DNA from: an uncultured Acidobacteriota bacterium
GTDB lineage: Bacteria > Acidobacteriota > UBA6911
Assembly (NCBI GenBank): GCA_963809485.1
Contig: CAWEJX010000001.1
Location: 192,001 to 256,000, forward strand
Direction of reading: 5' to 3'
DNA: 64,000 nucleotides
Made by a program: the position numbers and the translations under genes. Numbering within the stretch: position 1 is the stretch's first letter; the number at the start of each line of letters is the position of its first letter. This document shows positions 4,356-35,840 of the stretch, piece after piece. The notes under the pieces were generated by a model. It saw nothing but the letters and a program-made list of their open reading frames with translations. It searched no databases and was not told where the DNA came from.

Positions 4356-4474
4356 TATCGCATCCCGATTATGAAGGCCCTGAAATAGGCTGAAAAAAGC
4401 TGACGACCGCTGCCTCTCGAGCCGGAAGATGAGAAATCCCGAGGGCCGGAGGAAGCCGCTTCAAGCGGATCCCA

Positions 4475-4708
4475 GTCAGGTACCTCCGGCAAAGCCGGAG
4501 GCTTGAAAGATTGGAACCGCTCAAAGCGGTTGGAGGAGTTACGCCGGTCTTGAACGCTGACTTACGCGGGCAAAAGCCGATGAGGCGCCTCCGATCCCCG
4601 CCGAACAAGTCGGCGTTTGTCAGCGCTTTTATCTGCGTTTCTCAGCGTTTCAAAATACGGAGCTGTCAAACTCTTTGAGTCCCACGGCAGAGCCGGGGGT
4701 TTACCAAT
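4475..4708 (-). mobile_element. Non-autonomous IS200/IS605-type element (PATE-like), copy 1
   Basis: IS200-like end hairpins CCTCCGGCAAAGCCGGAGG + AACCGCTCAAAGCGGTT and GGAGCTGTCAAACTCTTTGAGTCCC...GCCGGGGGTTTACC; no transposase; repeated at 24804 and 27035. Confidence 0.75.
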
Positions 4709-4733
4709 GTAATCAAGCCTCCGGATTTGCCTG

Positions 4734-24543: not shown

Positions 24544-24803
24544 GGGTCCTCCTCGGAAGCGGAGGCGAATATAGATACCGGCTGTTCCTTTGTCAAGCAG
24601 CCCGTAAGCGCCCTCGCCTCGTTCACGCGGCGCGGCAAACCGGCAGCCGCATTTTTTGGGGTGACCGTGCTGCGGCAGAACCTGAGGCTTTACGGTTGCC
24701 GGCCCCTCCGAGGGGCTCGATCGCTGTCGATAAAAAATAAAACCGGTTTCATATGTAATAAGCATCTATAAGGCTCTTTGAACTGCAGCATGTCGAATAA
24801 AGA

Positions 24804-25186
24804 GTCAGGCACATCCGGCAAAGCCGGAGGCTTGAAAGATTTGAACCGCTCAAAGCGGTTGGACTAGTTACGCTGGTCTTGAACGCTGACTTACGCGGGC
24901 AAAAGCCGATGAGGCGCTTCCGATCCCTGCAGGGGCCAGCGCTCCGCGCTGGACAGTTTTCTGCGGCGGCACTGTGGCAAGCGCCGTGCGGCAAGCAGAT
25001 GAAGGGTATGAGAAACCGGGCGTTTGCCACGGTGCCGCCGCAGAAAACTCCATCGGAAGCGCCTCATCGGCTTTTGCTCGCCGACCCACGCCGAACAAAT
25101 CGGTGTTTGTCAGCGCTTTTATCAGCGTTCCTCAGCGTTTCAAAATACGGAGCTGTCAAACTCTTTGAGTCCCCCGGCAAAGCCGG
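24804..25186 (-). mobile_element. Non-autonomous IS200-type element, copy 2, with nested inverted-repeat insert; one end truncated
   Basis: Same ends as 4475-4708; contains a perfect 26-bp IR (24899-24924 / 25052-25077) around a 31-bp IR. Confidence 0.72.
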
Positions 25187-25279
25187 CAGATCCCCTAATG
25201 GAGCAAACCGTGCTCGCCCTCTATATTTGCGCTTGCTTTCCCATGTATTTGTGGGAAATTTGAGCGACAGGAGAGATCT

Positions 25280-26461: not shown

Positions 26462-26588
26462 ATCCGACGTTCGAAATTCGAAATGCGGCGATACCGCATT
26501 TCGCCATGTATTCAGCCGATAGACATTTAAAACCGGAAGCAGCACAATGAGTCAGGGATTGAATCGGTTCACGCAAAGGAGCGAGGCC

Positions 26589-27002
26589 ATGGCAGAAAAG
26601 ATTCGCAAAGTCGACTATTTCTACATCGAAACAGCCAACAAGCCCGGCGTAGGCGCAGGTTTGCTCGATGCCCTGCGCGATGCAGGGGTAAATTTGCTGG
26701 CCTTCACGGGATTCCCGCACGGCCGGAAAGCCCAGATTGATTTCATGCCCGAAGACACGGCTGCCTTCAAGGCTGCGGCACGCAAAGCGGGATTGAGGCT
26801 GAGCCTCAAAAAGACGGGCTTCATGATTCAGGGGGAGGACCGCGTAGGCGCAATGGCCGATATCATGGCGAAGCTGGCCGCCGCCCGGATCAATGTTACG
26901 GCGGTGGACGCCGTGAGCGCCGGCAAAGGCCGATACGGCGCGATATTCTGGGTAAAATCGTCCGACGTGCGGAGCGCGGCCAAAATTTTGCGCGTGTCAT
27001 AA
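26589..27002 (+). CDS. Tandem ACT-domain protein
   Basis: NKPGVGA...GVNL and DRVGAMA...RINV repeats. Confidence 0.8.
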   Translation: MAEKIRKVDYFYIETANKPGVGAGLLDALRDAGVNLLAFTGFPHGRKAQIDFMPEDTAAFKAAARKAGLRLSLKKTGFMIQGEDRVGAMADIMAKLAAARINVTAVDAVSAGKGRYGAIFWVKSSDVRSAAKILRVS

Positions 27003-27034: not shown

Positions 27035-27268
27035 GGCAGGTACCTCCGGCATAGCCGGAGGCTTGAAAGATTTGAACCGCTCAAAGCGGTTGGAGGAGTT
27101 ACGCCGATCCTGAACGCTGACGCACGCTGAACGGACGCCGACCCACGCCGAAAAAATTTTTTATATTTTTTCAGCGTATGTCAGCGTCACGTCAGCGTAC
27201 GTCAGCGTTTCAAAATAGGGAGCTGTCAAACTCTTTGAGTCCCCCGGCGGAGCCGGGGGTTTACCAAT
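27035..27268 (-). mobile_element. Non-autonomous IS200-type element, copy 3
   Basis: Same ends as copy 1; interior is a palindrome of ~10-nt tandem units (ACGCTGA / TCAGCGT). Confidence 0.75.
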
Positions 27269-27306
27269 GTAATCAAAATTCGCGCCCGGCAATTTCGAAT
27301 TCCGGA

Positions 27307-32548: not shown

Positions 32549-35500
32549 TCATGCCTCTGACTCCAAAACCTCAGGAAAGAGGTTTCCAAGAGGGGTCACG
32601 CCCAGGTGAACCACCCGATCTACGATAGCAAGCTGATTCGGATCAACCTTTCCCCGCTTCAGCAGTAACGCCTCATTAAAAAGCACGTCCGCCCTTAATA
32701 ACTCCAAACTCAGTAATGCCCGGATCTCCAGGGGATCGTCCATTTTGCCCTGGCTTACGGCCCGGGACGCATCCAGGAAGATCCGTATTCCCAGAGACCG
32801 GAGACCGGCTCCAAGCAGGGGCGTGATGCTCGCGTGAAATGCCTCCGTTAGAATGGCCCCGAATTCGGCGAGGGCAGCCAATGCCTGGGAAGGGCCGGAC
32901 GATTTGTGCTTCCTGAATGCGGCGATTTTGAGCCCCGCAGCCACCGCGTGACGGATTATTTGGGATTCAGCCCGCAACAGCTTATCTAGAATCGGGTGCC
33001 GCTCGTCTATATTTTCAAGAATCTTCCGGGCATCGGATGGTCGGAAGTCCGGGTCTTCAGCCAGGGCTGCCTGGGCCTGGCCTAAAAGCCTCTTCATGCG
33101 CTCGACAGTCCGCGATTCGTTGAGCATATTGCGCCGTATCTTTGGATCTGCGTAATCCCACAGCGGCCCATTCCCGGAAGCCCGGCAAGCGGGCACAAGC
33201 GCACAGTAGGCCAGGATCAGGCGCGCCGTCTCGAGCGACTGATACTTTTCGGGTTCCGTGAAGTAGCATTCGTGGATAATCCGCTTCAGGGAGGCCTGGA
33301 TAGCGATGGACATATCCTTGTATAGGGGATCTCCAGGGTCCGCAGGCAGATTCAGCCATGCCTGCCCTGCAAGCCTGGCGGCTGCCTGGGAAAACGATAC
33401 CCGAAGGGAAACCAGGCCGTTGCCGAGCAGATCGGGTCCGTTAGACAGAACCTCCTCCGTCCGCTGCTCCATCATGTCGATATAGTCGCCGACAACCGGG
33501 ATTTCCGCTTTGAAATAGGTTTCCACGGCCGGTCCTGCCTGGATCCGGAGATGCTTGCGCCGCAGGTCGCGCTTCGCATAAAGAAGCGTGTAATTCATCT
33601 CCATCGAATCTTCATGAATCCGGACGCCACCGCCGCCCGGCAGGTTCATGACCAGCGAAAGAATGCTCTTGCGCTGATTGCCCGCCATGATATCCGCGGA
33701 CTTCAGCGTGAACAGCAACTCGCCATCGGCCTCGGCTACTTCCGCAACGGCGACAGACTCATTCAGGTGCGATTGCCACGCACGCAGGAAAGGCATCGTG
33801 ACCTCGACCTCGGTCTGCCTTCGGATGCCGTGAGTAAGTTTTCCCAGGCCGATTTTAACCTGGGGGTGACGGGCTGTTAGAAGCTCCTCAAAGTTTCCCT
33901 CGACCGCCTTCCGGAATAGAGCCGACACGGATTCCGGGTTCACGCTGAAATCGAAACTCACATCGAGCAGTGCCTCCCGGCTGGTGTCTGACCCGCAGGC
34001 AGCCGTCCATTCGAAAACGTATTTGCGATGAAGCGCCTGCAGAGCTTTGTCATAAAGCTCCTGCCGCCTGGAGAGAAGCTGGTTCATCACGCCGCGAACC
34101 TTTTCCAGATCGCCAAAAGCCAGTTTGTCCAATCCGAGGAACTGCGCCAGCCTGCGTTGGAGAAAAGCGTCAAGTCGGGCGAATCCCGCTTCGTCCGCCG
34201 CCTGCGCAGCTTTGTCCAAATTGAGCTCCGTTTCCATGTAGCTTTGAAAACGCATCAGGATCCTCTCGGTGACATCCCCGTCGAGTATCTGCGAGACTTT
34301 TCTTCCGATGCCCTGGATATAGGAAACCGGTTTGGACAGCAGGCTGAGCGCACCGTCGTCCGCTGCCGCTTCGAGCAGCTGACCGGCCGGGGTGCGGAAT
34401 GAAACCGCCCGGCTCAGCTCTGCGTTCAATAGCAGGCGCAAGCCATCGGGCGTGATGTCGCCGAGGCGGTGCGCCAGCCTGCGAGCTTCGGCCAGGTCGG
34501 CCTTTTCCTCAACCATGCTCAACAGGGTCGAGGAAAGCTTGTGGGGCAGGTCGTGCCATTTCACGAGGAACTGGACGACATCCCGGTGAACCGCATCAAA
34601 CTGTTCGTGGAGGTTTTCGGCCGAAACTCCGGCCATGCAGGCGACCAGGTTTTCCGAGCCCTCCAGCCCGGCGTTCATCAGAAATCTCGAAAGAGGTACG
34701 GCCGGATCGTTCCATTGTTCCAGCAAACGCAGATCGCGCAGGATCTGCTGCCCGTGGCAGCCAAAAACTGCGGCAAGGAATCCCTCCATTCGATCGGGCA
34801 GTATTTTGTCCACTGCCTGCAGCGAAAGCCTCGCGTCGAGCGAAACGTCGAGTTGGCGGCTTTTGAGCCGGAAAAGGCGGAGCCGCAGGATGTTTTGATC
34901 GGTATCCCTGCTGATCACGATTGCGCAGCGCCCGCCCGCCGAAAATTCGGCGTCCGCAACGATTCCGGTCTGCAGACGCAGGCCAAGATCGCCCGACAAG
35001 CCGCCCAAAGCAGCCTCTCGCACCCAGCTAAAGCGGTAACCCAACTGGGATTCCAGGCGTAAGCGGATCATGCCAACGGTTTCCGCCATAATCCATGTCC
35101 CGGGCGGTACCTGTTCCGCAGAATGGATCTGGCGCGGCAGTATCCAGCTGTCCGCATTTGACTGGACGACATCGCGGGCGGGCATGGCGGCGGGAAGGCG
35201 GCGGATAACCGCAAAAACTCCTTCGTTCTCCCGGGAGGTCGCCAGAGCGGCTTTCCCCGTCGCTCCCAGCGCAACGGCGCCGTTCACCTTGCTGCCCGCG
35301 GCATATCCCCAGCGCAGCATGCTCAGAATAGAATTCCCATCGCATCCAAATTCCTGGGCCGAAAGCAAAAGATCTTCGACCTCATCTCCAAGACTGGACA
35401 GCAGGGTGTTGCCTGTTCGAAAGACACCGAAACCGGAAAATCTGCCGGCTTGCGCGGTGAAGCTGACTCTATCCCGGCCCTGCCCAAACTCAATCGGCAG

Positions 35501-35683
35501 GGGGGTCGATGCCTCCAGCCTGATCTCCGACATCACGATATCGCGGGAGGGGAACGGCTCCGAATCCGATGAAAGCGCAGCCTCTACGTCGGGCTGGAGG
35601 GGTCCCGTTGGCTTGAAACCCAATGAGGAGGCTTTATCGAGCAGGGACAGGTTCTTTTCGAACCGGAATTCTCTGACTTTCAC
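32549..35683 (-). CDS. Large hypothetical protein (~1044 aa)
   Basis: Long uninterrupted ORF; AGAGGA SD before GTG; no recognisable motif. Confidence 0.8.
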   Translation of the reverse strand: MKVREFRFEKNLSLLDKASSLGFKPTGPLQPDVEAALSSDSEPFPSRDIVMSEIRLEASTPLPIEFGQGRDRVSFTAQAGRFSGFGVFRTGNTLLSSLGDEVEDLLLSAQEFGCDGNSILSMLRWGYAAGSKVNGAVALGATGKAALATSRENEGVFAVIRRLPAAMPARDVVQSNADSWILPRQIHSAEQVPPGTWIMAETVGMIRLRLESQLGYRFSWVREAALGGLSGDLGLRLQTGIVADAEFSAGGRCAIVISRDTDQNILRLRLFRLKSRQLDVSLDARLSLQAVDKILPDRMEGFLAAVFGCHGQQILRDLRLLEQWNDPAVPLSRFLMNAGLEGSENLVACMAGVSAENLHEQFDAVHRDVVQFLVKWHDLPHKLSSTLLSMVEEKADLAEARRLAHRLGDITPDGLRLLLNAELSRAVSFRTPAGQLLEAAADDGALSLLSKPVSYIQGIGRKVSQILDGDVTERILMRFQSYMETELNLDKAAQAADEAGFARLDAFLQRRLAQFLGLDKLAFGDLEKVRGVMNQLLSRRQELYDKALQALHRKYVFEWTAACGSDTSREALLDVSFDFSVNPESVSALFRKAVEGNFEELLTARHPQVKIGLGKLTHGIRRQTEVEVTMPFLRAWQSHLNESVAVAEVAEADGELLFTLKSADIMAGNQRKSILSLVMNLPGGGGVRIHEDSMEMNYTLLYAKRDLRRKHLRIQAGPAVETYFKAEIPVVGDYIDMMEQRTEEVLSNGPDLLGNGLVSLRVSFSQAAARLAGQAWLNLPADPGDPLYKDMSIAIQASLKRIIHECYFTEPEKYQSLETARLILAYCALVPACRASGNGPLWDYADPKIRRNMLNESRTVERMKRLLGQAQAALAEDPDFRPSDARKILENIDERHPILDKLLRAESQIIRHAVAAGLKIAAFRKHKSSGPSQALAALAEFGAILTEAFHASITPLLGAGLRSLGIRIFLDASRAVSQGKMDDPLEIRALLSLELLRADVLFNEALLLKRGKVDPNQLAIVDRVVHLGVTPLGNLFPEVLESEA

Positions 35684-35840
35684 TTGAGATGGTCCTCTTG
35701 CGGGCATCTTCGCCGAAAACAGACTGCCACGTCAAGAAGCGCTAGTTTTCGGCGAGCAGGGATACGCAGGCGGATGAGATTCATCGGCATACATCGCCGA
35801 GGTACGCCCGCAAGATCCGATGAGGCGCTTCCGATGGCGC

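Follow-up and report, generated by a model that had tools for sequence, protein, structure and literature searches.

Three repeats in a window of 64,000 nucleotides (the whole stretch of DNA analysed) from an uncultured Acidobacteriota bacterium are PATEs, non-autonomous elements of the IS200 type, and every PATE feature that was testable here is found in them. Very probably they are gene-less PATEs of a tnpA-only IS200 in which a palindrome replaced tnpA, and which likely spread, mostly in the past, by single-strand peel-and-paste with the transposase acting in trans. As defined in the account of Haloquadratum given in PMC3119063, PATEs lack a transposase and have near-terminal palindromes, without inverted repeats or target duplication; a bacterial PATE-like copy is described in PMC7290912. 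As a PATE, the element is ordinary in kind.

All three copies in the window have a common orientation (minus strand) and common end blocks, and are without terminal inverted repeats or target site duplications, as the original prediction had claimed. The equal length that it reported for copies 1 and 3 also holds (both are 237 bp), but each of them extends three bases further at the left end than the span first given. The copies and their parts are the following:

4475-4711, minus strand: copy 1, 237 bp, with the left end at 4711 and the right end (TGAC) at 4475.
4712-4715, minus strand: target tetramer TGAT of copy 1, host DNA and left cleavage site, from the sequence, the empty site in a relative (G006) and the family logo.
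4681-4699, minus strand: left-end hairpin of copy 1, from the predicted fold.
4700-4703, minus strand: left guide TAAA of copy 1, for which the guide rule predicts TAnT.
4475-4531, minus strand: right end of copy 1, from the predicted fold and the alignment to the intact IS200 in locus L141.
4515-4531, minus strand: inner hairpin of the right end of copy 1, with the guide CAAG at 4502-4505.
4483-4501, minus strand: terminal hairpin of copy 1, with the cleavage site TGAC at 4475-4478.
4452-4474, continued at 4712-4731, minus strand: older IS200-type right-end remnant into which copy 1 inserted.
24804-25186, minus strand: copy 2, full-length master body, its own left tip lost.
24899-25077, no strand: inner nested palindrome of the master, with a long stem, side hairpins and an invertible central loop, from the predicted fold.
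25187-25201, minus strand: left tip of family B, a second IS200-end repeat family, joined to copy 2 at the left hairpin that both share, from the family B alignment.
24670-24803, minus strand: 3' half of family B with copy 2 nested inside, 109/134 identical to the family B representative.
27035-27271, minus strand: copy 3, 237 bp, AT-loop class.
27113-27209, no strand: palindrome of ACGCTGA units with an AT-rich loop in copy 3, of a kind found free-standing in the genome.
27272-27275, minus strand: target tetramer TGAT of copy 3, from the sequence; TAAT at the orthologous site in G006.

When the flanks of copy 1 are rejoined, the site matches four other genomic repeats weakly (80-82% over about 40 bp, E 6e-4). 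The hybrid of copy 2 with the left tip of family B is also present in G006, and the right end of copy 3 has its last base pair mutated (TGCC). Fold z-scores for copies 1, 2 and 3 are -3.3, -11.6 and -11.0, respectively. Two ORFs overlap copy 2, neither with a Pfam match, and no transposase gene lies inside the element, the Y1_Tnp hits being elsewhere. The ORFs at 32549-35707 (minus strand, 1052 aa) and 26547-27002 (plus strand, 151 aa) of the window gave no NCBIfam match.

A BLAST search of the whole 6.04-Mb genome under study (G000) gave 298 matches to the right end and 304 to the left end, which pair into 256 elements, 253 of them shorter than 450 bp. The family has at least 253 two-ended copies, about 250-300 in this genome, which together represent 1.2% of the genome, and the recurrence of the end blocks is far above chance. 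Element lengths peak near 398 bp, with a further scatter between 170 and 290 bp. None of the 253 copies is spanned by a predicted ORF, as judged with a crude home-made gene caller that is blind to genes destroyed by insertion. The ends are near-terminal palindromes without terminal inverted repeats, and the assignment to MITEs was rejected because neither the terminal inverted repeats nor the target duplication that define them were found. Besides, four terminal-only forms of about 45 bp, produced via deletion between the left and right hairpins, are each located after TAAT (G000 C4:66700, C15:31693, C16:120641 and C20:734861; a fifth listed hit is spurious). Near-full matches occur in one of 30 sampled relatives (G006), and no report of the family was found in the literature searched on IS200 and PATEs in Acidobacteriota.

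The element starts with TACATT directly after TRAT and finishes with CCTGAC, without target duplication. Of the 253 copies, 214 could be anchored on internal motifs at the left end, 219 at the right end and 190 at both. The tetramer before the left end is TAAT in 146 and TGAT in 36 anchored copies (182/214), against an intergenic background of 0.7% for TAAT/TGAT, and there is no conservation further outward from this end. The right end stops at TGAC in 199/219 copies, a count that is partly built into the anchor. TGAC is followed by T in 178 of the 219 right ends (81%), which suggests a target preference; a one-base shift of the boundary was rejected, given that the T at the left start is conserved in 97% of the copies compared with 81% for the T after TGAC. 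Duplications of 4 bases were found in 6/190 copies and of 5 bases in 0/190. Twelve of these 190 copies are inside other dispersed repeats, and when flanks are rejoined at the TRAT and TGAC boundaries the product aligns without gaps to uninterrupted paralogous repeats in 148/180 matches, whereas 11 other offsets gave 0-21. The insertion target TTAC, as first proposed, does not agree with the flank logo and was rejected because keeping TAC on the flank leaves 21/131 gap-free matches versus 148/180 at the TRAT cut. In TTGATTAC the target is TGAT and TAC constitutes the first three bases of the element; since TAC belongs to the element, TTAC lies across its left boundary.

According to PMC3201880, bases 1 and 2 of the IS608 guide cross-pair with bases 1 and 2 of the cleavage site; the guide concept is confirmed in PMC8266576. 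The guides of the element studied here are TAAA at the left end and CAAG at the right end. By the IS608 rule the fourth guide base also pairs with the cleavage site, and when the rule is applied TAAA gives TAnT and CAAG gives TGnC, both as observed. The guide TAAA is kept in 32 of the 36 copies with a TGAT target, without co-variation of the guide with TGAT, so that a T-G wobble must be assumed at these sites.

Element orientation is 59:3 on contig C20, whereas genes there are 546:548. On C7 it is 12:2 to the left and 2:10 to the right of dnaA (Fisher p 0.001), the top strand being the lagging-strand template on this contig; on C8 it is mixed (14:21). The top strand is the G-rich one in 193/253 copies. 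Gene orientation was rejected as the cause of the bias, since genes are about 50:50 on each long contig and the gene contexts of the copies are 89/61/59/44. A top strand located on the lagging-strand template is described for the IS200/IS605 family in PMC5027513. With about 200 target sites scored, the family allows the IS200/IS605 guide rule to be tested cleanly in nature; it does the same for the replication-strand bias, and the orientation of its copies marks the direction of the replichores in a genome that is not closed and has weak GC skew.

The same ends flank tnpA elsewhere. A scan of metagenomes with a 42-base left-end pattern gave 37 loci, all with TRAT upstream (37/37). The left end is followed by a tnpA frame in 10, by a tnpA-type leader or a deleted tnpA in 11, by the element family in 8 and by other sequence in 8. 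The frames of the first group bear the KYH, HuH and FWARGY motifs, and the right end matches in 9 of the 10. Thus, an autonomous tnpA with the same ends does exist (9/37 metagenome loci, none in G000) and, together with the empty sites described below, it bears out the assignment to a non-autonomous PATE of the IS200 type. In L141 the transposase has 144 aa (Y1, PF01797, E 4e-39) and the end spacing equals that of the gene-less element. Two same-genus genomes have a broken tnpA between similar ends. The metagenome elements in L107, L110, L117, L123 and L137 combine the IS200 left end of the element with a different gene-less interior; where the sequence extends that far, this interior includes a GTAG-type REP-like palindrome.

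A point against the PATE explanation is that no intact matching tnpA was found in the 95.7%-complete G000 assembly or in the Y1 set of G006. Four Y1 matches were found in G000: one is IS200-type with a TAG stop and without a right end, one is truncated, one is flanked by unrelated REP-like repeats and one is distant. Neither these four matches nor tblastn gave an intact partner tnpA in G000, and nowhere in this genome do paired ends enclose a gene within 3 kb. Among the three Y1 matches in G006 there is no intact matching tnpA, the closest one being frameshifted.

Regarding the interior, deletion forms are the largest class among the 190 copies anchored at both ends (108), followed by 56 full masters, 17 copies whose central loop is inverted and 9 of the AT-loop class. 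In an alignment set of 164 copies, which leaves out the inverted-loop and AT-loop classes, 151 align to one 398-bp master at 90% or more with no more than 10 inserted bases. Aligned to the master, copy 1 agrees in 232/237 bases and lacks one segment of 161 bp, and copy 2 agrees in 371/383. Interiors vary mainly because parts of a single master palindrome are deleted or its loop is inverted. The variable cargo of the original prediction holds for copy 3 but not for copies 1 and 2, both derived from the one master. Copy 1 being a deletion of the master and copy 2 a full body, it is probably by coincidence that copies 1 and 3 are equally long.

The inner palindrome of the master has no free-standing copies of its core or of its side hairpin in the genome. 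It was matched in 4 of 137 genomes of the class, G000 included, with 87% identity in G127 and 69% in G132, where the best matches are in an element-like context. The outer layer of the interior is made of ACGCTGA units, which are also found outside the element as 59 free-standing palindromes and 198 free arms of three units, compared with 0 palindromes in one shuffled genome. Copy 3 belongs to the AT-loop class (14/253 copies), whose end consensus is 100% identical to that of subfamily 1 and whose interior is about 90% identical to a free palindrome (score 134, versus 32 against the master interior). G127, which is of another genus, has a full master that is older and whose ends are only 81-87% identical. 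The comparison suggests that the copy-3 class is likely the result of one interior replacement after subfamily 1 arose; as short ends recombine between copies, the swap is likely, not proven.

Empty-site polymorphism was also found as expected. The site of copy 1 is empty in G006, a relative about 90% identical, with colinear flanks and the TGAT retained; copies 2 and 3 are occupied at the orthologous sites of that genome. The site of copy 3 is empty in contigs of the runs X4 and X1 (about 95% identical), the X4 join being colinear with 237 bp missing. The order of gain and loss of copy 3 cannot be set from these data, the site being filled in G006 and empty in the closer runs. No contig bridging the copy-1 site was found in the runs X1 and X5. 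Conversely, one G006 copy is precisely absent from G000 with TGAT kept, and nine full elements from relatives, when mapped to G000, were filled at five sites, precisely empty at one, empty with rearranged flanks at two and unmapped in one case. In L035, from a relative, an unrelated repeat element of about 250 bp with a short flanking duplication has split a copy close to the right end.

The element likely moved mostly in the past, and current activity, which the original prediction had assumed, is unsupported. There are no identical copies among the 190, the nearest neighbours among 50 full-length copies are 92-98.7% identical, and the full-length copies diverge from their consensus by a median of 2.3%. 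Besides, two of the three window copies are shared with G006, and the only close IS200-type tnpA is the one with the stop codon and no matching right end. In run X5 one contig (depth 6) covering window positions 4482-4504 has the right end (TGAC) abutting the left end with no target between them, as expected for a transposon junction or a tandem insertion; for circle formation it is only a hint. The presumed-RNA runs X20 and X22 gave partial end matches only, without cover of the host flanks.

In the mechanism proposed here, TnpA would bind the two subterminal hairpins on the lagging-strand template, with the guides TAAA and CAAG directing cleavage to TRAT and TGAC, after which a circle of single-stranded DNA would insert 3' of a further TRAT. 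A single ancient event likely put a palindrome of the ACGCTGA repeat family that flanks GxxExxY, with a second palindrome nested in it, in the place of tnpA, giving the 398-bp master. Later variety likely came from microhomology deletions, loop inversion and recombination between copies, plus at least one likely replacement of the interior by a free ACGCTGA palindrome in the copy-3 class.

A different view, closer to the original prediction, is that the element is active at present and regularly takes up and shuffles a wide range of unrelated structured cargos. The one interior replacement is the part of this claim that stood, and the view also draws on other IS200-end families with different host repeats (family B and the elements of G005 and G035), on 8 of the 37 metagenome loci with sequence after the left end that is neither tnpA nor family, 5 of these 8 with related interiors, and on some insertions younger than the split from G006. 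However, derivation of 151 of the 164 tested copies from one master argues against shuffling, and the lack of identical copies, the 2.3% median divergence and the failure to find an intact partner tnpA argue against activity, so that we consider this reading improbable; its strong version, active shuffling within the element family, is largely refuted.

The strong predicted folding of the copy-2 and copy-3 interiors, and a nested architecture that persists at 69% identity with complementary arms in G132, would also agree with a functional non-coding RNA or a TnpB-type guide RNA. Nevertheless, the interior is deleted to varying extents in most copies, its central loop occurs in both orientations (56 to 17), Rfam gave only sub-threshold matches to plant miRNA hairpins and the paired ends of G000 enclose no gene within 3 kb, while co-evolving arms would be expected of any palindrome; such a role is very unlikely. 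Also very unlikely is a REPIN/BIME-type repeat spread by a domesticated RAYT instead of an IS200 TnpA, in spite of the location of all copies outside predicted ORFs (0/253 spanned, with the crude gene caller) and of an intact Y1 HUH gene amid tandem REP-like palindromes in a RAYT-like arrangement at G000:C15:225200-226200 (L002). As far as described, REPINs and BIMEs consist of two like REPs, inverted, that match the REPs flanking the RAYT gene, whereas the ends of the element are unlike each other and unlike the repeats of the C15 gene. These two ends match the left and right ends of IS200, and the fixed tetramer target and the top-strand bias also speak against a RAYT.

The PATE explanation leads to the repeats from which the interior would have come. 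The sole GxxExxY gene of the genome (TIGR04256; G000:C7:764950-765600, L074) is flanked by inverted ACGCTGA arms, and the 59 free ACGCTGA palindromes cluster near contig ends (C7 712-789 kb and C8 607-667 kb), whereas the PATE is evenly spread. GxxExxY genes in two relatives are flanked by similar units with the arms facing the opposite way. Family B is a second gene-less family with IS200 ends, with at least 38 paired copies, 36 of them with the interior motif. Its interior is made of 7-mer repeats (e.g. G000:C8:143820-144140), its orientation is biased 10:1 on C20 and its left end resembles a tnpA element in L039. By eye, this 7-mer interior is similar to the arms around four-helix-bundle genes of G005 and G006; the elements of G005 and G035 carry 6-mer repeats, and a similar motif is seen, also by eye, upstream of one four-helix-bundle gene in G035. 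Most of the four-helix-bundle genes inspected (TIGR02436; L083-L101 in G000, G005, G006 and G035) have flanking inverted arms of 6-7-mer tandem repeats with a gene-specific unit. An older and more diverged IS200-end family has single ACGCTGA-type arms (G000:C1:286570-286800 and C20:404330-404550; 15 paired by BLAST).

A wider and rather doubtful possibility is that pairs of IS200 ends repeatedly serve to carry mobile palindromes of a second class, as yet undescribed. Taken jointly, this claim holds that the palindromes are the short-unit inverted repeats flanking GxxExxY and four-helix-bundle genes, that the GxxExxY protein would spread the free palindromes, that copy 3 would be a fresh swap, and that foldback would be selected for bringing the ends together on single-stranded DNA; it counts at least three PATE families in the genus, namely the ACGCTGA units described here, the 7-mer family B and the 6-mer elements of G005 and G035. 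The literature searched, mostly without subscription papers and supplements, gave no report of GxxExxY-flanking repeats inside PATEs, scarcely any mention of GxxExxY itself, almost nothing on non-autonomous IS200 elements with captured REPs or palindromes and no relevant report on repeats around four-helix-bundle genes. The origin of the interior would tie PATEs to the repeats around both kinds of genes and, if these repeats are mobile with their own enzyme, the element family offers a concrete substrate for testing.

Close counterparts of the element are the intact tnpA-only IS200 of L141, L119, L127, L133 and L140, which share the exact 42-base left-end block and the TRAT target and have likewise a double-hairpin right end finishing in TGAC (TGAT in L119). 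In the place of the palindromes of the element, these loci code for a Y1 HUH transposase of about 145 aa; none of them lies in G000. Like IS608 and ISDra2, as described in PMC3201880 and PMC5027513, the element has subterminal hairpins, 4-base guides 5' of each hairpin that pair with the cleavage sites, a target kept without gain or loss and the orientation of the lagging-strand template. It differs from them in the guides and sites (TAAA/TRAT and CAAG/TGAC here, versus AAAG/TTAC and a TCAA right site), in the distance from cut to hairpin (12 and 8 nt here, versus 19 and 10) and in having no tnpA or tnpB.

With the PATEs of Haloquadratum walsbyi (e.g. the homogeneous HqIRS46), as far as the account in PMC3119063 goes, the element shares palindromes related to IS200/IS605 ends, the lack of terminal inverted repeats and target duplication, a size too short for a transposase, a high copy number, strain-specific insertion sites (one strain being without an intact tnpA), terminal-only forms that have lost the core (four here) and mobile elements nested in one another. 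The same account describes SMR-A, inverted-repeat elements of about 100 bp nested in PATEs whose mobilisation is given as unknown, which are a precedent for a palindromic repeat inside a PATE; they insert into the near-terminal palindromes and are proposed to inactivate the PATE. In contrast to SMR-A, the repeat described here is at the place of tnpA and is co-amplified, and its free form flanks the GxxExxY gene. The element also differs from the H. walsbyi PATEs in its bacterial host, in its tnpA-only IS200 parent, in being one family at 250-300 copies and in its interior, a long nested palindrome built on the GxxExxY-flanking repeat that is part of the amplified unit.
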